Shown here piece by piece: positions 4,043 through 63,505 of a DNA stretch of 64,000 bases. The notes below the pieces were generated by a model that was not told the DNA's origin, made no database searches, and was given only the letters and a program-made list of their open reading frames with translations. Position numbers and translations under genes: made by a program. Position 1 is the stretch's first letter. The number at the start of each line of letters is the position of its first letter. The stretch covers positions 960,001-1,024,000 of the forward strand of contig CM000432.1 in NCBI GenBank assembly GCA_000165345.1, in the 5' to 3' direction.

Positions 4043-4142
4043 NNNNNNNNNNNNNNNNNNNNNNNNNNNNNNNNNNNNNNNNNNNNNNNNNNNNNNNNNN
4101 NNNNNNNNNNNNNNNNNNNNNNNNNNNNNNNNNNNNNNNNNN
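4043..4142. other. assembly gap (100 N) with ambiguous base calls on both sides (to ~4400)
   Basis: run of n characters; X residues in flanking ORF translations. Confidence 0.95.
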
Positions 4143-4427
4143 TATTACTGGTATCAGATAATATAATCCCAGGCGGCTTACATCCTCTACATCATTTACA
4201 GATTTTGTGCTTCTTAGAAGTTGATATGGTTGATTCTACAAATATCACAAGAAATATTTNANCCATTTCATTTGATAAATGATTTAAAGGTATACCAATA
4301 TTTTGAAGATTGTAAACTATATACNTTNCCATATGATTTANCACAGGGATCATCATCAATACTCNTTGATGAATTATATAATATATNNCCATCTNTTCAC
4401 CANAATANTCAGTTAATTGTTTAATGG

Positions 4428-12684: not shown

Positions 12685-13158
12685 ATGGATAAATTGGAAA
12701 TGTCAAATGAATGCAAGAGTTGTGAGAGTTACAAAAATGAAATTAACAAACTGAGGAAAGAAATTTACAATATCAGCAAATCAAATATAAATAGCCAAAG
12801 ACTTCTTGAAGAAAAATATACAATACAGGTTCAACAATTTCAAGAGGAAAATTACAAACTAAAAAAAACTGTTCAAGAATATGAAGAATATAAGCATAAG
12901 TCTGAAATATATTATGAAGAGGTTAACAATACCTTAATTGTTGCTAAATCGAAGCTTAAAGAGCTTCACGAAAGAATTACATTTCTGGAAAAGAGTAATT
13001 CCGAATTAGAATATAAATATAATGAGGCTAAGTCTCTATTGTCTATTCTAGTTGAACATAATAATTACAATTCGGAATTCTCCAGTAATAAAATACCTAT
13101 AAAGGAAAATCGATCTAATTATATTTATCAAATCGATTCCAATTCCATTTCCATTTAA
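12685..13158 (+). CDS. hypothetical coiled-coil protein
   Basis: 157-aa ORF with ATG; heptad-like K/E/L-rich sequence; no recognisable domain. Confidence 0.3.
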   Translation: MDKLEMSNECKSCESYKNEINKLRKEIYNISKSNINSQRLLEEKYTIQVQQFQEENYKLKKTVQEYEEYKHKSEIYYEEVNNTLIVAKSKLKELHERITFLEKSNSELEYKYNEAKSLLSILVEHNNYNSEFSSNKIPIKENRSNYIYQIDSNSISI

Positions 13159-13685
13159 GAGAGAAAAATCATATTTTTTCTAAATCTTTCTGCTGTTAAA
13201 GTCATTATTTGCATTACTAATATATTCATAATTTATCATTTATATTATCTTTTTAGATTATATGAACTATTTTGGAACTCATAGCATTCAAGAAAAAAAA
13301 AAAAAAAGAAAAAACATTTTTATTGAGCTTATAAAACTATTCATACTCACTCCAATAATTAACTTCTGATATTTCTTTATTATATTGTTACATAATTAAA
13401 TAATCTTTAACCCTTGAGCTATTCGTTCCTATTTTTAGTATTTCACTTTTTTTTAAATTAATTTATTCTAATTATTATAGTTCTATTCATTTAAAATAAT
13501 TAACAAATAAGGAAACAAACCTTTAATTGTTTCTAATACTTCCCTTTTCATTAAAAATATTAAAATTAATTCCCTTGAATCAAATAAACCTTTACAATTC
13601 TTGAATATTGATACCTTATATTATCTTGATCATTATTATTACTGTATTAGTGAAATTAATAAATATTTTGTTTGAACTTTTTTTT

Positions 13686-16271
13686 TTAAGCTGCAATATA
13701 AAATATTGCAATTGCACCAGCAATTAATAAAAATATTATACCAACAAATGAGAAAATAAATGTTGACTGAAGATACCAAGGCTGAGTGTCTTTATAGGCA
13801 TTAATTGAATTACTTTGAAAACTTCCCATATCATCATCACTTTCTCTCATACCTTGATTTATCATTCTCTGGCCATTCTGTAATTGACCAGGATTTGGCG
13901 CCATAGGGAACATTGGTATACCATATTGTGGTTTCTGGCCTGACATATTATTATTTGCATGCGATAAATATTGGCCTTGCATGTGGGAGTTTACGCGCCC
14001 ATTTTGTAATTGGTTTGCATTTATATACTTGGGTTTATGAATAATATCTTTATATATATATTTAACATTTCTCTTATTATTGTTTTGTTTAGATTTTTTA
14101 TGAACACGAATTAACTTAATATAATCATCATTATCATCGTCATCACTACTATCGTCACTATCATCATTATTGTCATCATTATCGCTTTCCTCTATTTCAG
14201 ATTCTTCGCCTTTAGGGTTAGATACCTTTGATTTCTTTTTTGTAATAATATCAGATTCTAGTATATTATTTGAAGCTTTTCTTGGAGTTCTATTCTTAAT
14301 GAAAATAGGAATTATCCTTTTTCGTGGAGTTTTTCTCTTAACATTTGGTCCATATCTTAATGATGGATCTTTAATTAATAAGAAAGGTTCATTTCTTCTT
14401 AATTTTGTATTGTTTGAAATGATGTTTGCTGCATTAGTTTGATGTGAAGAAGTTCGTTTAGGTTTTGCTTTTGTTAATGCTTGTAATATAATTGTTTTTG
14501 GTTGTGGCTTAGGTACTGTTTGCGCTTTAATTGGTCTTGTCTTTCTTACAGGTACTGTATATAGCATGAGGGTGTTTGGTTGTGTTACAGGTTGAACCAT
14601 AGTTTGTCTTGGCTGTGGTACAGGTACAGTTATAGGTTGAACCATAGTTTGTCTTGGTTGTGGCACAGGTACAGGTACGGGTACAGGTTGAGCCATAATT
14701 TGTCTTTGCTGTGGTATAGGCATAGGCATAGGCATAGGCATAGGCATAGGTACAGGTACAGGTTGAACCATAGCTGGTTTTGGTTGTGGTACTGGTACAG
14801 CTTGAGTCATAACTGGTTTTGGTTTTGGTTTAGGCTGTGTTATAGGTACTGTTTGTATTAAAATTGTTTTTGGTTGTTGTTTAGGTGCTGTTTGAGTTAC
14901 TATTTGTTTCGGTTTAGGTTTAGGTTTTGGCTGTGTTATAGGTACTGTTTGTAATATAACTGTTTTTGGTTGTGACTTAGGCACTGATTTTATAACATTT
15001 TGTTTTGGTTTTAGTTTCGGTTTCGGCTTTGGTTGTGTTATAGGTACTGTTTGTATTAAAATTGTTTTTGGTTGTTGTTTAGGTGCTGTTTGAGTTACTG
15101 TTTGTTTCGGTTTTGGTTTTGGTTTTGGTTTTGTTATAGGTACTGTTTGTATTAAAATTGTTTTTGGTTGTTGTTTAGGTGCTGTTTGAGTTACTATTTG
15201 TTTTGGTTTTGGTTTAGGTTTTGGCTGTGTTATAGGTACTGTTTGTAATATAACTGTTTTTGGTTGTGACTTAGGCATTGATTTTATAACATTTTGATTT
15301 TGAATTTGATTTGTAGAAAGTGATCTTTGATTAACAAAACCAACATTATTAATAGCAATCCCACCAGATTGTTGAATATTATTCATTTTCATTGTTGGTT
15401 TTGGATGAATTACATTCTGATTTGCAGAAAATGCTGAATTTGTACCAAAAGGTAAATTGTAGATATCAGGTTGAGATATCCCAGTACCTCCAGGATAATA
15501 AAAAGTAGGTAAGTTGTCTTTATTATTAACATTTGTTTTAGTATTAGAATAATTATTTAATCCAGTCTTTGGTTCATTTAAATTATTAAATATCAATTTT
15601 GGACCATTATTAACCATTTTTTGATTAGAATTATTTATTGACATATTCTTTTTCTCTTGATTTAAATTATTATTCTTTTTTATATCAAAATCGTCATCAT
15701 CATCATCATCTTCTTCTTCTTCACTTTCTCTACTGGAATAATCAAATTCTTTTATTTTCTTCATTTTATCTTTAATAACTTTATCTGCTGTTGCTGAATC
15801 TACTTCAGAATCATTACTATTTTCATCACGGCCAAAAGTAGGTCCTAAACTTTGAGATAAAAATCCTAGTTTATTGGCTGAATCTTCTGATACAGATGAA
15901 TCATCTTTTTCAAAATTCTCTCCACCAAAACTACCACTAGTACTTTTTTCTGAATCATCAAAATTTTCTGATTCAGTTAATGTGCTCTTTATTGATCCAT
16001 CCATCGTTGATAACTCTTTATTTTTATCACCAAATCCATTTCCTGATTCAACTTTTGCTTTTCCTATTGTATTTTTTAACAATTCCAATCCAAGTTCAAG
16101 ACTTTCTGAGCCTTCACTTTTATTTTTTTCAAATTCTGAATCACATTTTACTAATTTTATACCGATTCCAAAATTATCTCCATTAATAAATGATAAATCC
16201 AAACTCAATATCAGGAAATACAATGATAGTACCAATATTAATAGTGATTTACCTATTTTCCCAACCCTCAT
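13686..16271 (-). CDS. secreted or membrane-anchored repeat protein (signal peptide, Pro/Lys/Thr/Gln 32-aa tandem repeats, PV and PM dipeptide arrays, C-terminal TM)
   Basis: N-terminal signal peptide LLILVLSLYFLILSLDLSF; about six copies of TVPITQPKPKPKPKQIVTQTAPKQQPKTILIQ; PVPVPVPQPRQTMVQP and PMPMPMPMPMPIP blocks; acidic DDDDDD tracts; C-terminal hydrophobic segment FIFSFVGIIFLLIAGAIAIFYIAA. Confidence 0.5.
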   Translation of the reverse strand: MRVGKIGKSLLILVLSLYFLILSLDLSFINGDNFGIGIKLVKCDSEFEKNKSEGSESLELGLELLKNTIGKAKVESGNGFGDKNKELSTMDGSIKSTLTESENFDDSEKSTSGSFGGENFEKDDSSVSEDSANKLGFLSQSLGPTFGRDENSNDSEVDSATADKVIKDKMKKIKEFDYSSRESEEEEDDDDDDDFDIKKNNNLNQEKKNMSINNSNQKMVNNGPKLIFNNLNEPKTGLNNYSNTKTNVNNKDNLPTFYYPGGTGISQPDIYNLPFGTNSAFSANQNVIHPKPTMKMNNIQQSGGIAINNVGFVNQRSLSTNQIQNQNVIKSMPKSQPKTVILQTVPITQPKPKPKPKQIVTQTAPKQQPKTILIQTVPITKPKPKPKPKQTVTQTAPKQQPKTILIQTVPITQPKPKPKLKPKQNVIKSVPKSQPKTVILQTVPITQPKPKPKPKQIVTQTAPKQQPKTILIQTVPITQPKPKPKPVMTQAVPVPQPKPAMVQPVPVPMPMPMPMPMPIPQQRQIMAQPVPVPVPVPQPRQTMVQPITVPVPQPRQTMVQPVTQPNTLMLYTVPVRKTRPIKAQTVPKPQPKTIILQALTKAKPKRTSSHQTNAANIISNNTKLRRNEPFLLIKDPSLRYGPNVKRKTPRKRIIPIFIKNRTPRKASNNILESDIITKKKSKVSNPKGEESEIEESDNDDNNDDSDDSSDDDDNDDYIKLIRVHKKSKQNNNKRNVKYIYKDIIHKPKYINANQLQNGRVNSHMQGQYLSHANNNMSGQKPQYGIPMFPMAPNPGQLQNGQRMINQGMRESDDDMGSFQSNSINAYKDTQPWYLQSTFIFSFVGIIFLLIAGAIAIFYIAA
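14860..15250. repeat. tandem ~96-bp DNA repeat (about 4-6 units) inside the 13686-16271 CDS
   Basis: unit ggtactgtttgtattaaaattgtttttggttgttgtttaggtgctgtttgagttact...ggttttgg repeats head-to-tail with few substitutions. Confidence 0.75.
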
Positions 16272-16956
16272 ATTGGGAATATCTCCTCTTTTTAATACTT
16301 TTTCTGATTTACTTTCTTCAAATTTTTGTTAATTGGTCAACGGTTAAGTAAAAATCTCAAGCTTGATGATTATCTAACAGTCTTATACTGACAAAATATT
16401 AAATAACAATTTTCAATGCTCAATTTCTCGGTATTATTATTTAAAAAATTTTTCCTTATATATATATTTTTTTTTTTAATCACGAATTTTTCATTCCAAT
16501 ATTTACAGAGATCTAAAATTTTGGCGCTCTTATTTATAACTTATTTCCTTCAATTTATTCTTTATTTTTTGCATTTTTACGAGGATTATGTCAAAGTATA
16601 ACTTAATAATTTTTTTTTTTTTTTTTTTTTTTTAAATAATTTTTTTTTAAAAGTTCGTTGTTTCCCATCAATTTATCCGTAATTAATTACATTATGTAAA
16701 TCATATTGATTAAACCATTAATATGATTAATTGTCAATATAATAAGTAACTATTGAATTATTAAGTAATTTGTTAACATAAATTTTTCTTTTTAATATTT
16801 AATAATTTGAGATATGTCTTCAATAAATAAATCTTTAAGAAGAAAGTGGCATTANNNNTNGTTCATAACTGTAACTATTTTTAACATTTTAGTAAAAATC
16901 TGCAATAATTTTTTCTTTTCAAATCTTTTTTATTTATCATAAATTCGATACTTTAG

Positions 16957-17085: not shown

Positions 17086-19740
17086 ATGAAAGACCACGGA
17101 GAAAGTATTAAAGATGAACTTCAAGCATATTATGGGGATGAAATATTAGCAAATAATACTGAATTAATTACCAACAATGTTACTGGAAGTGATGAAATTG
17201 AGGACGATCGTATTTTAAACATAGATTTTTCCCAGAAAGATATCGATGTTGATAAGATTTTTAATGATATTTTAGAAACAAAAACAATTAAGGAATTGTT
17301 TTTGATTAGAAAAGAATTAAATAAAATGATTCAAAATTACCAAGCTGAGATGCAAAAGTTTATTCATTCCAATTATAAAAAGCTCAAGTTTATTTCAAAT
17401 ATTCTTGATAAAAATATTCTTTGTAGTAATCATACCAATTGTAATGACCTATCAGATTTAAATTCAAATAAAATTATTAATTTTGTTGAAAATAACAAAA
17501 ATCTTGTGAATGAANAGTTTCAAGAAATTAAAAATAATATTTTCACCAATGAAAATAATAAAAACCTTGAAAAGTATTTGACCCAGTATCAACTATTTAC
17601 AATAGTTTCTGAACTAAGGAATTTCCATTTAATTCTTGAAGATTATTTCTCTATGCAAGATTATGAATCATTAATTAAAATGTATAATAAATGGAAAAAA
17701 CCACTTGAAATACTTTCTAACGATGATGATTTTAAAATAGAATTCCAAGAAATATTAAGAAATAGCAATGAAATTTTTGAAAAAACGATAAATACTTTAA
17801 AAAAGCAAATACTTGTAAATATTAATAAGAATTCAATATTACCAAGTATTAGTATTATCATTAAATCATATATTTCATTAAATAGTGAACAAATTGATTT
17901 TACCAATGATTTGATTTCAAATATTAATAATTTATTTCAAGATATTGTTAATGAAATTGTTATTAAACAACTTGAAAATTTAGAAGGTTCCAAAGTTGAT
18001 GATAAAGTTAAAATATTTTCAAACACTTGTAAACAATCATATCAAGAAATATTTATCCCTCTTAATTTCATAATATCAGAATTGAATAAAGATGAAATTG
18101 ATCCAATAATACCATCTTCCATTTTAAAAAACTTGTTTGAAGTTTCATTCATAAAAATTATTGAATTACTTGGACATATATTTAATTATGAGAAAAAGAA
18201 TCCAAAATTTGAACTAAATATGCAACCAATTTTACAAGGATTTGAATATCTCAACCAGTCAATTAAGGAACTTTTAAAAACTTTATCATTAACAAACTTC
18301 CATAAACATCCATCTTTTTCTTCAGACAAATTTAAATATATTGTAATAAATACCAAAAATAACTTTGAAAATAATAATATTGAAGTTGATGATGAATATT
18401 ATGATAGCAATGATAATATTATTAAGAGAAAATTCATTGAATGGAAAAAATATATTTTAAGTGATTTTCTCAAATTTGAAAATTTTGATTTGAGTATTAA
18501 AGAAATTTGGAATAATTTATTTGATCTTGTAATTAATTTGCAGAATACTGATATTGAGACTTTATTTATTGAAATCAATAAACAATTATTTAACAAATTG
18601 ATTAATGATGAATTATATAATATTATTAAGAACTATAAGGAATTAATTAATATAGACTTTGAAATTTGTGAAAACCTTGTGAGAAAAGTGATCAAAGATT
18701 TTTTTCAATCAATTATTTCAAATTCAATATTATATATTAATTCAGTATTTTTTAATAATATTAAAAATAGTGATCTTAATTTTAATTCCATTGAAAATTT
18801 TGATCAATTGATAGAAAAGATGAATCTTGAGCTTGAATATAGTCTGAATGGTAATAATATTTTTGACTTAAATAACCAAGATTGGATTGTTGAAAAATTT
18901 TCACTTGTTAATTATAAACAAAAAGCCATTTACTTTTTATCTATTATTATCTTAACAAGATATTTAAGAGATAATGCTCTTCCAGCATGCATTTCATACT
19001 TTTACAAATGTTTTTATGATGATAAAAGTGCAATTAAAAATTCAATAGATAGTATTGAATTTCTGGATTTATTTAATTCTGATAAAATTAAATATGAATC
19101 GCCAACAAACCTCAAAAATAATAGCTTTTACGAAGATGATGCCACCATGCAAATTGTAAGAATATTATATAATCGATTTGAAATCTTGTTTCTTAATATT
19201 TTCGTAATTTGGAATGTTCATGCCATAATACAAGAAATTTATGATCAGAATGATCTTAAAAGTGGGGAAAAAATACATATTGGCAAATTCATCGATTTTA
19301 TGCATTTAAACTTAATAAAGTTATTCAAATTTTGTAATATTTTATTCCAACCTCAATTTCAAAATTCCAATTATGTTAGAAAATCAGCAATTTCTGAACT
19401 TCAATTTCCAATTAAAAATTCTGAAAAGTCACAAATTTTTGCAAAGTGGTCCAATAATTATTATATTCTCAAAAATTTCGATCTTGATTGTACAAAAATT
19501 GTTTTCAATAAACCTATTTCATTCTGGTTTTCCCAAATTCTCCATGGGATCATCATCGAGACTATTTTCATTATCAAAAATAATAACTTTATAATAATTG
19601 AAGATGCTGATTCTTATGAAAAATCATTATCAAAATTCTGGAATAATATTAAAAATTATTTTGAATATGATATTGATTTTAATATAACCCATGCTTTATT
19701 TTGTCAGCTTTATAACACATTACTATTGCTAAATTTTTAA
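17086..19740 (+). CDS. vesicle-tethering complex subunit with Vps51/COG/exocyst-type N-terminal domain (exact family unresolved)
   Basis: 884-aa intronless ORF; N-terminal IKELFLIRKELNKMIQNYQAEMQKFIHSNYKKLKFISNIL resembles the Vps51/Vps67 (PF08700-like) signature (L..eL..l...NY..FI.as..I); remainder is alpha-helical and low complexity. Confidence 0.35.
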   Translation: MKDHGESIKDELQAYYGDEILANNTELITNNVTGSDEIEDDRILNIDFSQKDIDVDKIFNDILETKTIKELFLIRKELNKMIQNYQAEMQKFIHSNYKKLKFISNILDKNILCSNHTNCNDLSDLNSNKIINFVENNKNLVNEXFQEIKNNIFTNENNKNLEKYLTQYQLFTIVSELRNFHLILEDYFSMQDYESLIKMYNKWKKPLEILSNDDDFKIEFQEILRNSNEIFEKTINTLKKQILVNINKNSILPSISIIIKSYISLNSEQIDFTNDLISNINNLFQDIVNEIVIKQLENLEGSKVDDKVKIFSNTCKQSYQEIFIPLNFIISELNKDEIDPIIPSSILKNLFEVSFIKIIELLGHIFNYEKKNPKFELNMQPILQGFEYLNQSIKELLKTLSLTNFHKHPSFSSDKFKYIVINTKNNFENNNIEVDDEYYDSNDNIIKRKFIEWKKYILSDFLKFENFDLSIKEIWNNLFDLVINLQNTDIETLFIEINKQLFNKLINDELYNIIKNYKELINIDFEICENLVRKVIKDFFQSIISNSILYINSVFFNNIKNSDLNFNSIENFDQLIEKMNLELEYSLNGNNIFDLNNQDWIVEKFSLVNYKQKAIYFLSIIILTRYLRDNALPACISYFYKCFYDDKSAIKNSIDSIEFLDLFNSDKIKYESPTNLKNNSFYEDDATMQIVRILYNRFEILFLNIFVIWNVHAIIQEIYDQNDLKSGEKIHIGKFIDFMHLNLIKLFKFCNILFQPQFQNSNYVRKSAISELQFPIKNSEKSQIFAKWSNNYYILKNFDLDCTKIVFNKPISFWFSQILHGIIIETIFIIKNNNFIIIEDADSYEKSLSKFWNNIKNYFEYDIDFNITHALFCQLYNTLLLLNF

Positions 19741-22554: not shown

Positions 22555-22945
22555 TAAAGTTCAAGCCATTGCTTTCTTTAGTTAGTTTTATTCTTAGATT
22601 TTTCTTGGTAAAGGTTTCTATATTTTACAAGTATTTTACTTAATTTTGAATTTTTGCATTTTATGTAAACTTCTTTCTTTTACTAAAAATATGTCAGAGA
22701 ATTCATATTAATATAACAATAGATAAACTTGCTGAACTTTATTTTAAGCCATTTATATCCATTTTTTTAATTCACTCGCTCTAGCATAATTTTCCCTGCA
22801 TGCACCTTATAATATTAAAATTTTTATTTTAGTTAAAAATGACGTGGAGGGGGATTTGGCGGCAAAAAATGTGCATATTAAATTGTGGGAAGAAGTTAAG
22901 GAAATTAATTCAGTAATATTAGTAAAAGAAATTTTTCAGAGCTCT

Positions 22946-25900
22946 ATGGAGAGTTTTAGATACTTCCCTTTTTTTGAAAAGAAAGTTGTTGAAGGGGAAA
23001 ACTATTTTAGTTCAACTCTTGATTTTGAAAAGTTAGGACTAGGTTCATTTATTACATGCTCAGGAAACGAGAATTCTCTCTGGTTTGGCACAGGAGATGG
23101 TTATATCTACGAGGTTGGGCTTCGGGATGGACTCCTGAGTATAATTGAGAGCTGGAAGGCATATGATATAACAGTTTTTGACATTAAGTATTCCCAAAAT
23201 ACCCTAATAACTATTGGAATGGACGAAAATAATATGTGGAAATTAAAGCTATATGATTGTTTGGATGGCAACATTTTAAGTTCACGACTTGAAAATTATC
23301 AGGAGGTTCCAATATATAAAGAATTAGGTGAAAGAGGAATCACTGTATTTGAAACATGTTCTGATAATCAATTTGTTGGTTTAGGAACTGTTGATGATTT
23401 TGGAGTATTCATATTATATGGAGATTTTTTTGGTGTTGATACATATTCAAGCCATTTTATTGAATTATCTGAACCATGTACAGGAATTCATTTTATATCT
23501 TCTAATACAAAAGAAGAATATTACATTATGATTTCTACAAAAAATTCTATAATTTCTTATGAAATTGGAGTTAATACAAAATTCCCAAAGCTTATTTACA
23601 GTGATACAATGGGAGGTGCAAGACTTAATTGTAGCTCAATACTAAATTCATGGACTGATGATATCTCACAAGTACGTGATGTCTTAGTAGTATTTAGAGA
23701 AGAAGGCTTGTTTTGTTATCATCCAGTTAATGGTAACTGTTCTGCTCTTCCAACTAATCATGGAAATCCTATCATACTCTCAACTTTCAAGAATTATCTG
23801 GTCTTAGTTAGTTCTCCTCTTAACATCTCATCAGAATATTATTCAAATAATTCCAGAGAACAAATTGAAACTGTTAATACAACATTATGTGATGTTACTA
23901 TATGTAATTACCTCCCAGAATTAAGATGTATATGTTATACTGGTGAATTTAAAAATGTTTCACATATTGTTAAAGGACTTAATATGTTATTTGTCCTCTG
24001 TTCTGGAAATAATGTACTTTCAGGTTCTACTTCTATTACTAACACAAATATGATTAATAAGTTTGATCATACAATTTTAGAAAGAAAACAAGGAATTCAA
24101 AGTAATATTCTTTTACCTAATTCTTCTTCTAATACTAATCATACTGGTAATACTAATAATAGTACTAATAATTCATATATTACTCATACAAATATTACTA
24201 TGCCAAATCTATTATTTCACTTGGAGGAACTTAACCTATTTGAAAGAATTCAAATCTTAATCAGTAAAAACCTTTATGATTGGGCTCTAATCTTAGCTAA
24301 GAATGGAAATGTCTCCAATTCTATATATTCTCAGATCCAAAGAGCATATGGTGATTGGCTTTGTAATATTAGAAAAGATTATTCGGGAGCTTTAAACAGT
24401 TATCTTAATTGTCTAGATAGCTTTTCTGGAGATACCAGTCATGTAATACATAATTTTCTACAAGCTAATAGATTTGATGAAGCAATCACATATTTAAAGG
24501 AATGTGTATTAATTTTTAGAAGAAAAGAATCTACTAAGAATGCTATTAATCTTACAAATAGTGAAGATTCCAGATTTCCTATTGCAAAAGATCATATAAC
24601 ATTACTTTACAGATTATTTGCACAATTGGATAGATTAGAAGATATTATGGATTTTCTTCAAAATAGGAATTTAAACGAAGAAATTGATAATTATGAAGTA
24701 GAAACAGCGATTGATATGTGTAGAAATTATAATAAATTTGAAATGGCTGGAAATATTGCAGAAAGATTTCAATTTCATGATAAATACATGCAAATTCAAT
24801 TGGAAGATAGAAGATCTCCATCTGAAGCATTAGAGTATTTGGAAGATATTAATTTGGATGAGCCACAAAAACTATCATTAATATTAAAATATGGACCAAT
24901 TTTGATTAATAAGATTCAAAAACAAACAACTAAATTTATTAAAAATTTGGTAATAGAAAATAATATGCCAATTGATGTATTTTTACCAATATTTGTAAAT
25001 CATGATCATTTACTATTAGAAATGGCTTGGGATGTATTAAATAATGAAGGGAAGAAATTACAAATAGAATTAGAAGATATTGAAAAGATATCAGTAGAAT
25101 TATGTATTCATATACTTCAAGTATCTTTAAGACAAGAACCAAAATCTGAGATATGGGGCTAAATTAATATTAGAAAGATTAATAAGAATAGATAATTCAG
25201 AGAATTGGCATTCAATTTTGTGTATTTGTATATATTATAGATATATTTCAGGTGTATTTTATATTTCACAACATTGTAATTTACATCAATTTGCAATTAC
25301 TGAGTTAATAAAAAAAGGTGAAATTAAAGATCTGATAGAATTCTGTAGTTTATTTGGTAATAAGGACCCATTTATATGGCAAGAATCATTATGTTTGGTT
25401 ATAAAGAAATTATCAGAGAATACAAATATGAAAGAAAATATTGAATTAATAGAATATCTTAAGGCGATTTTAGAAAACGTTCATTCACTAAAATTAATAT
25501 CTCCATTATCAATTTTGGAGATTTTGTCAAAGTATTTGGTAAATGATAATATTTCATCAGATGAAAGATTTAATTCATTAACTTTTGAGATAATTAAACC
25601 AATATTAGCATTATACTCTGATTATAATAATGAGAATCTTTCAGAAAATAATAGGAATTCATTAAACGATATAAATGAGATTAATAGGATGAAGAAAGAA
25701 ATCAAAGACTTGAAGATGATGCCTAAAATATTAAATACTTCAAGATGTAACCAATGTCATTTACCTTTGGAATTACCAATAATTCATTTCTTATGTGATC
25801 ATTCATTTCATAGATATTGTTTATTACAACAAGATCAGTGTCCAATATGTTCTTCTGATCAAAAAACAAAGATCAGACTTTTAAAACAGAGAGAAAATCA

Positions 25901-26003
25901 ACAGATCAATAAAGATCAATTTTTTAAGTTTATTAAGGGAGATACGGATAATTCACTAGGTTTTGATCATATTTCAAAATCACTAAGTGTTTTATTCAAA
26001 TAG
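22946..26003 (+). CDS. vacuolar sorting protein Vps11 (Pep5) with C-terminal RING-H2; two exons joined by a short intron near 25121-25202
   Basis: first in-frame ATG at 22946 (MESFRYFPFFEKKVV matches human VPS11 MAAYLQWRRFVFFDKELV; the track ORF starts at an upstream GTG); FDVETAIDMCRNYNKF...YMQIQLEDRRSPSEALEYL matches human FDVETAIKVLRQAGYY...YLKIQLEDIKNYQEALRYI; the second ORF (25218-26003) carries ISGVFYISQHCNLHQF (matches GVLYLYEQGKLFQQ) and the RING CNQCHLPLELPIIHFLCDHSFHRYC...CPIC (human [25 protein letters not shown]...CPTC); only a GTATCT donor at 25121 paired with a CAGAG acceptor at 25202 keeps the frame; exact junction uncertain. Confidence 0.7.
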
Positions 26004-52441: not shown

Positions 52442-53729
52442 ATGGTAAGAAGACTCTCAAGTGAATTTGGAGATTTTATCGAATCTTACCCTTTAAAAAG
52501 AACTACTATACCTTATTTAGATGGAATATGGACTTGGATTGATTGTAATCCAAAAAATGTGGAAAAAATTACTAAAATAGTTTCTCAAGAAAGTATTACA
52601 GATATTGAAGATATTACTGAAGATTACTATTCAAGGAAAACTGTNAAACANTTNNCTNTNNNNGATCNAGNNNAGCTTANTAAATTNAATAGNNCTTCAT
52701 TAAAATATAATAATAATAATAATAATGAAAAATACGAATCTAATGAATTTGATATAATTGTTATACTTCATGGTTTATCAGGAACTGCTGGTGAATACTT
52801 TATGTTTATGAAGAATATGTTAAAATGCGGATATAGAATAATTTCTGTACAATATCCAATATATGATGATATTAATGATTGGATAAGATCATTTTCTCTT
52901 TTTTTAGATCAACTTGAATTGGATTCAATACATTTATATGGAAGTGATTTAGGTGGTTATTTAAGTATAATGTTTTCACAAGAATTTCCTAATCGAGTAA
53001 AATCATTAATTTTGTGTAATGCTTTTGTATCAACATTAAATTTACCATTACCATCAATAGCTTCAACATTTTTATATTTTTGTCCACAATTTATTCTTGT
53101 AAAGTTAATTTCTGAAATTTTCAAAAATAGAGAAATATTATATTCACCAATAGAAGATATGGGATTTTATTCAACAGTAACAAATATTCATAAAGATAAT
53201 AATTTATATGATAAATTATATAATNCAATCATTAAATTTGTGATTGGACAATTATATTCACTTTCAAATCATGATTTGGCTTCTAGATTAAGTTTTGTAT
53301 TATCAGGTGATGAAACATTATCAATATTAAATTTGACAAAATTTTCAAGTATATTAGATAATAAAAGAATTACATTTTATTTCAAGTCCTGATAATTCTT
53401 TTGATGATCATAATTTCGTTAATTCAATAATAAAATTTGAAAATGTTAAACTTGCTCAACTAAAATATGGTGGGGACTTTCCTCATCTTTCAAATCCTGA
53501 TGATATTTCATTATTTTGTCAAGTACATCTTAGAAATTGTAATGCTAAAAAATATACTTATAAATCATCTAATAATGATTTGGTTAATAATAAACAAGAA
53601 TCTCCTAAAAAGTTAACAAGTTTAAATTCAAATTTCAGTCCAACAACTAGTTCAAGTTTTTATGAAATGCCTTATCCAGGAAATATTATTCATCATGAAT
53701 CATCTTTTGATTATAATATGATTAATTGA
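52442..53729 (+). CDS. maspardin (SPG21/ACP33) alpha/beta-hydrolase homolog; the reading frame shifts by one position at ~53388 and the gene contains n-ambiguities at 52645-52693
   Basis: IIVILHGLSGTAGEYFMFMKNMLKCGYRIISVQYPIYDDINDWIRSFSLFLDQLELDSIHLYGSDLGGYLSIMFSQEFPNRVKSLILCNAFV is colinear with human maspardin ([92 protein letters not shown]); after the in-frame stop at 53390-53392 the +1 frame continues FENVKLAQLKYGGDFPHLSNPDDISLFCQVHLRNC, matching [35 protein letters not shown]. Confidence 0.65.
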
Positions 53730-61510: not shown

Positions 61511-63505
61511 ATGACAATAAAAGTATATTTACATTTGCTAATACTAGCATTATTTATATATAATGGTCTTGTATATGGATTTGAAATGGGAAACATTGGG
61601 TCATATATAAGATCCCTAATAGGATTTAATAAAAAAAATGATTCATTCAATGAACAATCAATGTTCAAGTATAAAAGTTATATACAACATTTAAATCTAC
61701 TACAAGAATTAGAAACTAAATGTTCAAATATTATGAAAATCTACAAATATAACAGTGAAAAAGGACTATATTGNTGGTGAATCAAAATGTCAGTATTTAC
61801 ATATTAAGCTTGGAATATCAAATATTAATTATGATGTACCAAATATATTATTCATCTCTGGAATACATGGAGATGAAAAATTAGGTGTAGAAATTGCTAC
61901 TGAATTTATAAGCTCTATTTGTGATCAATATATTAATCATAATAATATTGGAATCAAGTATCTTTTAAGTACTAGAAATATATGGATTATTCCTATTGCT
62001 AATCCTTGGGGTTTTTATCATAATAAAAGAACTGAAGAAGAAATTGATGTTAATAGAGATTTTCCTTCAAAAAGTGGANAAAATTGTCTTAAAAGTGAAA
62101 GTTCTAAAATGATCTATAATTTGTTTAATCTTAAATCATTTGTATTTGTTGCAGCTTTACATGGTGGATTAAAAAGTATTTCTTATGGAAATGGCTATTT
62201 TGATGATATTGATGAAAATAACAAAANCTTTGAATNTATCGCTAAAGATTTACAAGCTTCAGCTGGTAAAATATTAAATAATAATGATATTCATAAATTA
62301 AATTACTTTTATGATCAAATTGGTAATATTGCAAAAACTGTATATCCAATAAAAGGAGGATTTGAAGATTGGTCTTTATATGGTTATAATGTAAGTCATA
62401 TATTATGTAGTGACTATATTCAAAAATCTCATTCTGCAAATAAAGGTGGATCTTTAACTTTTCTTATAGAAACTGATCATCAAAAAACTCCTAATCAAGA
62501 TACTTTAGGATCTAAATCTGATCTATTTAGCCTTATTGATCTTGATAAACTTTCTATACAACCATCTCATATTACCAGAAATATTAGAATGTTACTTAAA
62601 CTTACTGAATATACTTATCCAGATATTATTTTTTTTAATAAACCACCAAGTACCGTTTATTTTGGTCAAACTTTTATATTATATATAGCTATTATTGGCT
62701 GCTATTCTTTCAGTAATTTAAGGATTAAACTTGAAAATAATAACAATAATAATANTAATAATAATAATNATATTAATCATTATTNTAATACTANCTTAAA
62801 TTCTGAACAACAACCTATTTATCTTAATTTTTATGTTAATGAAGGATTAGATGGTCTACAAAATACTATTTATTATAAAAGATGTTCTTCTTTATTTCTA
62901 AATAATCAAGAAATCCAAGATATCCTTGATAATGANTCTTTNTATACATNTNAAGATAAATGTAATGAATCTAACTTACTTACAANAATTGTTAACCGAA
63001 GTTTTAGAGTTAAAAATAAATGTAAATCTATATATCAATTTAATAAATTTNAGCCTATANAAATTTTGNTAAGGTACCGAATGAGACAACAATTCTTAAT
63101 ACTATGAATGGTGAAATTGAAAATTTTCTATTAAANATTGAATTAGAATTTGATACTGAACTTACTCANACTATTTCATATTCTAATAAAAATATATTTG
63201 NAAAATTTACAANACTTAGATNTTCTCAAAATGGAAATAAAATTGATAGACCTATTATTATTCCGATTCAAAAAGATAATATATTATCAAAAAATATACA
63301 GAATTCTGAAATTCAAACACAATTCTATTCAAATTCATATGATCCATCAAAATCATTATTATTCTCTGGATTTCAAATTAAAGTTATTAAGCCTCAAGAA
63401 ATATTACAAATAGAATTCTCTACTTGTTCTGAATCTTCTATACAAAATATTGGTAAATGGTCTAAATCATGTCAAACTTTTCTTGACTTTACTAAAAAAA
63501 CTTAA
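61511..63505 (+). CDS. secreted M14-family zinc carboxypeptidase (CPD/CPE-like subfamily); reading frame broken twice by n-ambiguities/frameshifts (near 61775 and 63104)
   Basis: signal peptide MTIKVYLHLLILALFIYNGLVYG; zinc-ligand and catalytic blocks ISGIHGDEKLGVE (HxxE), IWIIPIANPWGF, VNRDFP, FVAALHGG match the M14B order; the three track ORFs 61511-61780, 61755-63107 and 63104-63505 abut or overlap at n-containing positions. Confidence 0.5.

Follow-up and report, generated by a model that had tools for sequence, protein, structure and literature searches.

We have analysed a single gene within a stretch of 64,000 nucleotides of genomic DNA (the window; GenBank assembly GCA_000165345.1, contig CM000432.1, positions 960,001 to 1,024,000). 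The open reading frame (ORF) at positions 13686–16271 on the reverse strand is the known but uncharacterised Cryptosporidium parvum gene cgd4_3970, and encodes a protein with a Pro- and Lys-rich repeat block. Comparison of orthologues reveals that the length and charge of this block are kept from species to species even as its sequence is rewritten, leading to a testable idea of function, i.e., that the block is a polycationic stalk or adhesin, possibly ordered. Taken as a whole, the reading we favour is that of a membrane-anchored, mostly disordered secretory protein that would act as a polycationic stalk or adhesin of an invasive or early stage, and we put its probability at roughly 0.45. 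The gene is of interest because it is single-copy and non-subtelomeric in a major diarrhoeal pathogen, is well expressed in sporozoites and has a product with a secretory topology.

The ORF is uninterrupted and intronless, with 861 codons for 861 amino acids and a stop listed at 13688–13686. Its product matches without any difference C. parvum Iowa II EAK87441.1, QOY42297.1 (CPATCC_001929), WKS77598.1 and WRK31727.1. Identification of the gene follows from its 100% identity to EAK87441.1 together with its position between RPN2 (cgd4_3950) and a VPS51-like gene (cgd4_3980). A published table assigns RPN2 to cgd4_3950 and GDI to cgd4_4080, both of which are neighbours in the window, and the published primers for quantitative reverse-transcription PCR (qRT-PCR) of cgd4_3970 match exactly at 14531–14557 (reverse strand) and 14428–14452 (forward strand). 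In the 1.107-Mb chromosome records CP141121.1 and CP029783.1 the gene lies ~128 kb from one end. It is not a new finding, having been in the databases since the C. parvum genome of 2004, with a description essentially the same as that in an earlier reading of this stretch from its letters (the original prediction). Literature searches on accessions and gene IDs found no paper naming cgd4_3970 in its main text.

Composition and evolution of the repeat block

What is retained in the repeat block? Over six orthologues its length lies between 264 and 334 amino acids, with a Pro content of 16–26%, a Lys content of 14–15% and a net charge of +41 to +51 (about +43 in C. parvum). The repeat period differs between species, being 32 amino acids in C. 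parvum, 30 in C. hominis, 13 or 26 in chipmunk genotype I, 13 or 28 in C. canis and 31 in C. ryanae, and outside C. hominis the identity of the block to that of C. parvum is merely 33–47%. The content of Ser plus Thr is 13% in C. parvum and lower in other species (chipmunk genotype I, 10%; C. canis, 9%; C. ryanae, 5%), and there are no runs of these residues. Because length, Pro, Lys and charge stay within narrow limits while Ser plus Thr drifts downward, the sequences argue that selection acts on the bulk physical properties of the block (extended, stiff and polycationic), and not on a scaffold for glycans as in a mucin. The likeness to mucin-like proteins drawn in the original prediction does not fit these values, nor the 14% Ser plus Thr of the whole protein.

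The C. parvum array was delineated using Tandem Repeats Finder (TRF). The main array spans 14814–15267, with a period of 96 nucleotides, 4.7 copies, 83% matches and a score of 649; a higher-order period of 198 nucleotides within it scores ~657–658. As a null model we took 100 codon-shuffled versions of the ORF, scored by TRF at periods of at least 12. These gave a mean score of 21 and never exceeded 78, so the repeats are real and not a by-product of composition. Splitting the array at TVPIT gives four full units of 96–102 nucleotides, at 15147–15242, 15051–15146, 14949–15050 and 14853–14948, with one leading half unit and one trailing half unit (14802–14852). Three units of 32 amino acids are 95–98% identical at the nucleotide level, and the fourth is a variant of 34 amino acids with just 77–78% identity. 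The original prediction had proposed about six near-identical 96-bp repeats (14860–15250). Such repeats are indeed present, but their number comes down to four full units and two halves, and the 32-residue peptide that was quoted occurs exactly twice.

Each PK-type unit is made up of two modules, and each module is a (PK)n linker followed by a TVILQ, TILIQ or QIVTQ segment. Residues 329–600 form a chain of ~16 modules, mostly of 13–19 amino acids. In the majority a Pro-rich linker is joined to a short hydrophobic segment, and every module except the last has Gln at its end. An array with a period of 45 nucleotides at 14584–14720 (2.9 copies, 82% matches by TRF) encodes PVPVPVPQPRQTMVQP-type units. 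The PV/PM repeats had earlier been regarded as a separate, second family. On splitting into modules they are seen to continue the same array in diverged form.

The three 32-residue units are closely similar within C. parvum, while the comparison of C. parvum with C. hominis gives an apparent synonymous divergence (dS) of 0.29 for the repeat block, compared with 0.04–0.05 in the flanking parts of the gene. This combination points to concerted evolution by slippage or unequal exchange.

We also examined the gene outside the repeats. The order of genes RPN2, a 157-residue ORF, cgd4_3970 and the VPS51-like gene is kept in chipmunk genotype I, in C. canis and in C. hominis, for which it was seen in three assemblies and in a fourth whose allele is longer. 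An exhaustive HMMER search with the C-terminal 262 residues added C. felis (a fragment) and C. ryanae (955 amino acids, with the same architecture), and found nothing credible outside Cryptosporidium. A bacterial repeat protein (P0011; E = 3e-5, in six short stretches) was treated as spurious. Word-indexed searches with the N-terminal part and with a C-terminal profile missed known orthologues, and so we make no claim of absence for gastric or avian Cryptosporidium. The gene is single-copy, with relatives found within Cryptosporidium only. In Table S3 of Xu et al. (2019) it has a C. ubiquitum orthologue (cubi01649) and is among 49 highly divergent genes, with <65% identity between chipmunk genotype I and C. 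parvum or C. ubiquitum. Most of these 49 encode proteins with signal peptides, for which cgd4_3970 is itself scored 'Yes', and it is one of the few that are neither subtelomeric nor provided with a paralogue (Xu et al., 2019).

The ratio of nonsynonymous to synonymous substitution (dN/dS) for cgd4_3970 is below 1 everywhere (0.30–0.78), compared with 0.04–0.20 in its neighbours. For the non-repeat parts, C. parvum against C. hominis gives 0.39–0.72, compared with 0.04–0.13 in two neighbouring genes. In the C-terminal anchor the ratio drops to 0.08–0.17. These values, below unity and lowest in the anchor, indicate that this is a fast-evolving protein with a constrained anchor and not a dead ORF. 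Could the ORF nevertheless be a non-functional stretch of low complexity, or an artefact of assembly? Its extreme composition might suggest this, and ORFs that mirror it on the opposite strand show that such a sequence easily stays open. Yet four species have the ORF intact and in synteny, and two others have homologous proteins; it is under constraint, as we have seen, it is transcribed at ~700 counts per million (CPM) in sporozoites, and a base-identical gene is present in an independently deposited chromosome-length assembly. We regard this explanation as refuted.

The original prediction had warned of variation in copy number and of possible collapse of the repeats in the assembly. We inspected two chromosome-length records (1.107 Mb), both of which carry the same ORF, and compared one of them with the window base by base, finding zero differences within cgd4_3970. 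Given this identity, and the same 861-residue product under four accessions, collapse is unlikely for this strain. Variation in repeat number between isolates was borne out. A second C. parvum allele (CM109964.1) encodes 859 amino acids, a 6-bp deletion having removed one PM, and carries four substitutions in addition. Two C. hominis alleles encode 856 and 926 amino acids, differing by 210 bp in three indels and by 15 substitutions. The difference of 70 amino acids arises from three separate insertions in the repeat block (assemblies L004 and L006; L004 gene coordinates 5329, 5586 and 5644), which implies repeated, independent events of slippage or exchange and not the gain of a single unit. 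Substitutions number 1.55 per kb within the gene and 0.12 in its flanks for the C. parvum pair, and 5.83 and 1.12 for the C. hominis pair. Being several-fold more polymorphic than its flanks, with a clean 6-bp microsatellite and larger unit indels, cgd4_3970 could serve as a typing marker on chromosome 4. In C. felis and C. canis assemblies made of short contigs the gene is fragmentary. The C. felis orthologue is present as two fragments with their own accessions (P0008 and P0009), an N-terminal one of 199 amino acids and a C-terminal one of 235, and a second C. canis record (P0007, 448 amino acids) ends within the repeats, suggesting that assemblies from short reads break at the array.

Layout of the protein and its membrane anchor

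All the regions of the protein are encoded on the reverse strand. The order of the charge blocks is identical across all orthologues, and conservation clusters in short motifs. Overall the protein contains one Cys and 2% Tyr.

The N-terminus (residues 1–31; 16179–16271) resembles a signal peptide, with MRVGKIGK, a hydrophobic core of 16 residues and DLSFING. Hydropathy in 19-residue Kyte–Doolittle windows exceeds 1.6 for windows starting at residues 3–13. There follows an acidic block rich in Ser, Asp and Glu (residues 32–200; 15672–16178), with a net charge of −21 for residues 33–200. It contains the conserved motifs STLTESE, FEKDDS and GFLSQSLGPxFG (invariant columns of the alignment) and an amphipathic helix predicted at 159–174. 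A run of Glu and Asp occupies residues 182–194, and TRF finds (ATC)7 at 15690–15710. An Asn/Gln-rich linker (residues 201–326; 15294–15671; 24% Asn over residues 201–328) includes the invariant motifs LPTFYYPGxTGIS (columns 254–266) and PxPxMxMNNIxQ (columns 290–301).

The PK-type tandem array defined above by TRF, by the split into units and by families of direct repeats corresponds to residues 327–490 (14802–15293). Beyond it are the diverged PV/PM/PQPRQ-type modules (residues 491–565; 14577–14801), which from TRF and the module split comprise AVPVPQPKPAMVQ, PVPVPMPMPMPMPMPIPQQRQIMAQ, PVPVPVPVPQPRQTMVQ and PITVPVPQPRQTMVQ. Within these the (PM)n array of the original prediction is found as (PM)5, encoded by a perfect (ATAGGC)5.8 microsatellite at 14716–14750 (100% matches by TRF) that is polymorphic within C. 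parvum. The module split places the last, degenerate modules, PVTQPNTLMLYTVPVRKTRPIKAQ and TVPKPQPKTIILQALT, at residues 566–600 (14472–14576).

The C-terminal part begins with a basic block (residues 601–690; 14202–14471; net charge +18) that contains SDI and the motif RRNEP(F/Y)xLxxDPxxRYxPNVxR....R..P, with columns invariant in six orthologues, those of C. felis and C. ryanae among them. Next comes an Asp-rich tract (residues 691–716; 14124–14201), which is 50% Asp with a net charge of −16, and has a TRF period of 9 at 14124–14170; with the run at residues 182–194 it accounts for the acidic tracts noted earlier. It is followed by an Asn/Gln-rich region (residues 717–819; 13815–14123) with the aligned motifs Y(I/L)xLIR, PKYI and GIPxF. 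The protein ends with a juxtamembrane motif (S/N/D)-N-S...D..PWYxQS and a hydrophobic anchor of 26–30 residues (residues 820–861; 13689–13814), identified by hydropathy, structure prediction and conservation.

Two short motifs were considered as functional signals and dropped. An NGR at 757–759, a candidate ligand for a host receptor, is not kept in C. felis or C. ryanae, and an acidic run with YIKL, a candidate LC3-interaction or sorting signal, would be on the luminal side in the proposed topology.

We have modelled the cgd4_3970 product using AlphaFold2 (AF2) with an alignment of six sequences. The mean predicted local distance difference test (pLDDT) score is 32.8, with 806 of the 861 residues below 50, and it is ~30 in the Asn/Gln-rich region 717–819. 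In the acidic block (residues 32–200) the score stays below 50 outside the helix at 159–174. Helices are predicted at the hydrophobic ends (5–23 and 832–860) and in two short amphipathic stretches, including that at 159–174, and nowhere else; helix 832–860 has the best pLDDT of the protein. No Pfam family scored above cutoff in any of four orthologues. Sub-threshold matches to Cwf_Cwc_15 and TBCA were rejected as compositional and driven by the acidic tracts, and the other three orthologues gave none. A sequence search of the PDB returned no match.

The signal peptide and C-terminal transmembrane (TM) segment of the original prediction are thus supported by the hydropathy of both ends and by the AF2 helices, and agree with the database annotation. 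How is the C-terminus held in the membrane? Hydropathy windows starting at 832–843 reach 1.9–2.8, and the segment extends to the last residue; this is so in five species, with SAQN following it in C. ryanae. A type I single-pass protein has a signal peptide and a TM helix, both of which are present here, although a tail of 0 residues, or 4 in C. ryanae, is atypical. An N-terminal signal peptide with a hydrophobic stretch at the extreme C-terminus is equally what a glycosylphosphatidylinositol (GPI)-anchored protein has. GPI signals have small residues at the ω and ω+2 positions, a polar spacer of 5–10 residues and a hydrophobic tail of 12–20 residues that is cleaved. The triad (S/N/D)-N-S at 820–822 is kept in all orthologues, 9–15 residues upstream of the 26–30-residue hydrophobic tail, and, in opposition to a TM helix, could be the ω to ω+2 site. 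However, no other part of the protein is as conserved or as constrained as the anchor, and a GPI signal that is to be discarded would not usually be so. The C-terminal 31 residues are 87% identical in C. canis and 58% in C. ryanae, where the proteins overall are 48% and 31% identical and the signal-peptide region 74% and 39%. Because of this conservation, and the SAQN that follows the segment in C. ryanae, we prefer a TM helix that is retained and has practically no tail in the cytoplasm.

Expression and competing explanations

By qRT-PCR the cgd4_3970 transcript peaks at 2 h post-infection (1–3e-6), is mostly several-fold lower at 6–48 h and reaches its minimum at 72 h (Mauzy et al., 2012). 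Bulk RNA-seq gives log2 CPM values of 9.4–9.6 in sporozoites, 7.5–7.8 at 24 h and 7.9–8.0 at 48 h, and the gene is present in the sporozoite gene-list file of that study, whose first sheet is 'SporoVSinvivo-Sporo' (Tandel et al., 2019). It is absent from the AP2-F supplement and the other female gene lists that we searched. These data fit a product that either serves the sporozoite or is synthesised as soon as invasion has taken place. Genes for the oocyst wall peak at 48–72 h. The high level of mRNA in sporozoites and at 2 h, the minimum at 72 h and the absence from the AP2-F supplement therefore argue against a role in the oocyst wall.

How might the protein function? In the reading that we favour the product would enter the secretory pathway by virtue of its N-terminal signal peptide, and be kept on the membrane by its extreme C-terminus. 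The anchor would be a type I TM helix lacking a tail or, with lower probability, a GPI anchor near S820-N-S. The part between the two ends would then face the lumen or the outside, and we infer a location at the parasite surface or the interface with the host. The ectodomain would lack a globular domain, and consist of an acidic head (about −21), polycationic Pro-rich repeats (270–330 residues; about +43), the basic block with the Asp tract after it, and a neutral Asn/Gln-rich region, with short conserved motifs scattered along its length. The repeat block would work through its bulk properties, as an extended, stiff and positively charged stalk or adhesive tract. Such a stalk might hold the acidic head off the membrane and/or bind polyanions (sulfated glycans, mucus) on the host surface, acting at the encounter of the sporozoite or young trophozoite with its host cell. 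If length, charge and Pro content are all that is constrained, slippage and unequal exchange would be free to rewrite the units. As a result, units would evolve in concert inside one species, alleles would differ in copy number from isolate to isolate, and each species would have its own units.

Several points weigh against this proposal. The role as a stalk or in binding polyanions is argued from composition and by analogy with proteins familiar from the literature. An AF2 model of the C. canis orthologue is an ordered β-solenoid in place of a disordered stalk. The enrichment of the mRNA in sporozoites is merely 3–4 fold, and nearby rows of the RNA-seq table include genes for a ribosomal protein and for ribosome biogenesis that are likewise highest in sporozoites. 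The mRNA may be a stored message for the early trophozoite and not that of a sporozoite surface protein.

The last point leads to an alternative that we consider rather unlikely. The product could be a protein of the host interface or vacuole of the young trophozoite, supplied from dense or small granules or, right after invasion, from stored mRNA, and residing in the parasitophorous vacuole membrane, the feeder organelle or the attachment zone and not on the surface of the zoite. The transcript indeed has its highest levels in sporozoites after excystation and at 2 h of infection, and declines steadily thereafter. Many cargo proteins of Cryptosporidium granules are reportedly disordered, of low complexity, restricted to the genus and provided with signal peptides, and the cgd4_3970 product has all of these properties. 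However, a C-terminal TM or GPI anchor is equally suited to a protein of the zoite plasma membrane or microneme membrane, and the interface and secretome papers in the literature searched do not name the gene in their main text. Still less probable is that the protein is ordered and fibrous, in which modules of 13–16 amino acids, each a β-strand with a Pro/Lys turn, build a curli-like β-solenoid or an intermolecular cross-β structure, and so a rigid, membrane-anchored fibre or mesh. The C. canis model, made from the single sequence, has 23 regular strands of 6–8 residues (QITLQAVA) connected by KPQPK-type linkers of 5–7 residues, with pLDDT of 70–86 over residues 330–600. The C. parvum repeats contain 15 segments free of Pro and charge (TVILQTV, TILIQTV, QIVTQTA and others) with a mean Chou–Fasman β propensity of 1.14–1.40, all six orthologues share a hydrophobic periodicity of ~13 residues, and the Gln that closes every module but the last points the same way. 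Yet the protein's own model, from six aligned sequences, has no strands in the repeats and a pLDDT of ~30 there, and a Foldseek search of the PDB with the C. canis model returned nothing significant. Stacking in register would align about two Lys in every turn, for which the repeat offers no acidic partner, and such a ladder is electrostatically unfavourable unless neutralised. Moreover, the PV/PM modules (residues 491–565) have Pro-free stretches of just 5 residues. In addition, single-sequence AF2 tends to turn near-perfect repeats into solenoids that look confident. Since the orthologue model was made without an alignment, the predicted β-solenoid is a lead only. A more specific form of this idea, a little more doubtful again, is that the block could be a genus-specific, membrane-anchored curli-like β-solenoid or cross-β fibre acting as a functional-amyloid adhesin triggered by polyanions; its Lys-lined edges would make folding or assembly dependent on polyanions of the host or parasite. 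If true, there would be a functional-amyloid adhesin at the contact of Cryptosporidium with its host, with length and charge held constant while the sequence is continually rewritten.

The original prediction had called such arrays typical of cell-surface, mucin-like or cell-wall proteins. Read in that way, the product would be a heavily O-glycosylated glycoprotein of the surface or cell wall whose repeats are a scaffold for glycans, and we think this improbable. Thr makes up 12% of the C. parvum repeat block, with many residues in T-x-P or T-A-P contexts, which favour the transfer of O-linked N-acetylgalactosamine (O-GalNAc), and the combination of signal peptide and membrane anchor is like that of gp40/15. 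But mucin repeats are typically more than 25–30% Ser and Thr, a content far from that of these repeats in any orthologue. Oocyst-wall proteins are Cys-rich, in contrast to the single Cys and 2% Tyr here, and neither the expression profile, with its minimum at 72 h, nor the searched lists of female and AP2-F-dependent genes place cgd4_3970 with the wall.

The surroundings of cgd4_3970 and comparison with known systems

The window is AT-rich (GC 0.18–0.37) and contains long uninterrupted ORFs for eukaryotic housekeeping proteins, including RPN2, a VPS51-like protein, VPS11, Rab GDI and a metacaspase. There are 156 ambiguous bases (N) in the window, including one gap of 100 N and scattered positions, and 0 inside the cgd4_3970 ORF; from these the window is probably an older draft assembly. 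They are located at 4043–4142, 4260–4408, 16855–16860, 17515, 52645–52693 and 61774–63222. The cluster at 16855–16860 falls in the upstream region common to cgd4_3970 and cgd4_3980, and the N at 17515 gives an X in the VPS51-like ORF cgd4_3980. A perfect T24 tract (16610–16633) is found ~340 bp upstream of the cgd4_3970 start codon, between the two divergent genes. Scanning the 814 bp upstream of the gene for E2F-, AP2-, G-box- and GAGA-type motifs revealed nothing informative.

An A-rich run of 22 nucleotides (13293–13314) lies between the 3′ end of cgd4_3970 and the adjoining ORF of 157 amino acids (12685–13158, forward strand). This ORF is presumably cgd4_3960, and is kept in each of the four species with synteny. 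Comparison of C. parvum with C. hominis gives it a dN/dS of 0.04, its Pfam matches are weak and of coiled-coil type only (HAUS1, NET2A, myosin tail), and cgd4_3960 is not listed in the 2012 transcriptome supplements searched. ORFs on the forward strand opposite cgd4_3970 (14170–14442, 14580–14861 and 15874–16332), with peptides such as HRHRHRHR, are mirror artefacts of the low-complexity repeats and not genes. Further along the forward strand, the program-made ORF list gives a VPS11-like ORF of 772 amino acids (22844–25162) with a GTG start, and 56 bp beyond it another ORF of 261 amino acids (25218–26003). The two may be one gene split by a short intron or a sequencing error.

How does cgd4_3970 compare with systems that have been described? 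Within the genus, the mucin-like glycoproteins gp900, gp40/15 (GP60) and CpMuc4/5 are alike in having a signal peptide, a C-terminal anchor, low complexity, tandem repeats, divergence between species and polymorphism of length. They differ in being built on runs of Ser and Thr that bear O-GalNAc, where the cgd4_3970 repeats are of Pro, Lys, Gln and Val, strongly positive, with 5–13% Ser plus Thr. GP60 is a GPI-anchored variable surface protein (PMC11411101). Our homology searches with cgd4_3970 returned none of these glycoproteins. Nor does the protein resemble the oocyst wall proteins, which have Cys-rich (COWP) or Cys/Thr-rich (POWP) domains and are expressed in the female stage or at 48–72 h. 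It has one Cys, no Pfam domain, a transcript that peaks in sporozoites and at 2 h and is lowest at 72 h, and no entry in the AP2-F supplement.

A likeness to GPI-anchored zoite antigens of other apicomplexans is one of layout. The circumsporozoite protein of Plasmodium has a signal peptide, species-specific central repeats between conserved flanks, a C-terminal hydrophobic anchor signal and an mRNA peak in sporozoites, as does cgd4_3970. In contrast, cgd4_3970 has no TSR or other adhesive domain, its anchor is unusually long (26–30 amino acids) and is its most conserved part, and the two are not homologous. For a fibre the comparison would be with curli CsgA, a β-solenoid (PDB 8c50_A). Here the identity is 3%, the turns would be rich in Pro and Lys in place of the Gly and Asn of CsgA, and there is no curli secretion or nucleation machinery; the match is moreover to the single-sequence C. 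canis model, and not to the C. parvum protein, which AF2 leaves unstructured.

The X-Pro arrays (KP)n, (PV)n and (PM)n recall TonB with its (Glu-Pro)n(Lys-Pro)n rod, and the Pro-rich spacers of pneumococcal PspA and PspC, all of which would be expected to form extended polyproline-II spacers that cross a surface layer, with numbers of units that vary between strains. Unlike these, cgd4_3970 is eukaryotic and C-terminally anchored, has no TonB C-terminal or choline-binding domain by Pfam, and its dipeptide runs are broken every 13–19 residues by hydrophobic segments. It is not of the TonB or plant extensin type, with no Pfam match above cutoff, no SPPP or PPVYK and no Tyr in its PK/PV units. 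The Lys/Pro/Ala-rich heparin-binding domain of mycobacterial HBHA is similarly a repetitive, polycationic Lys/Pro tract on a surface-exposed protein. This is an analogy only and not homology: the cgd4_3970 tract is about ten times longer, and its charge (+41 to +51) is kept while its sequence is not. Thus cgd4_3970 is a member of no curated family, and by analogy it appears to resemble the repeat antigens of zoites, the X-Pro spacers and the polycationic tracts of adhesins.

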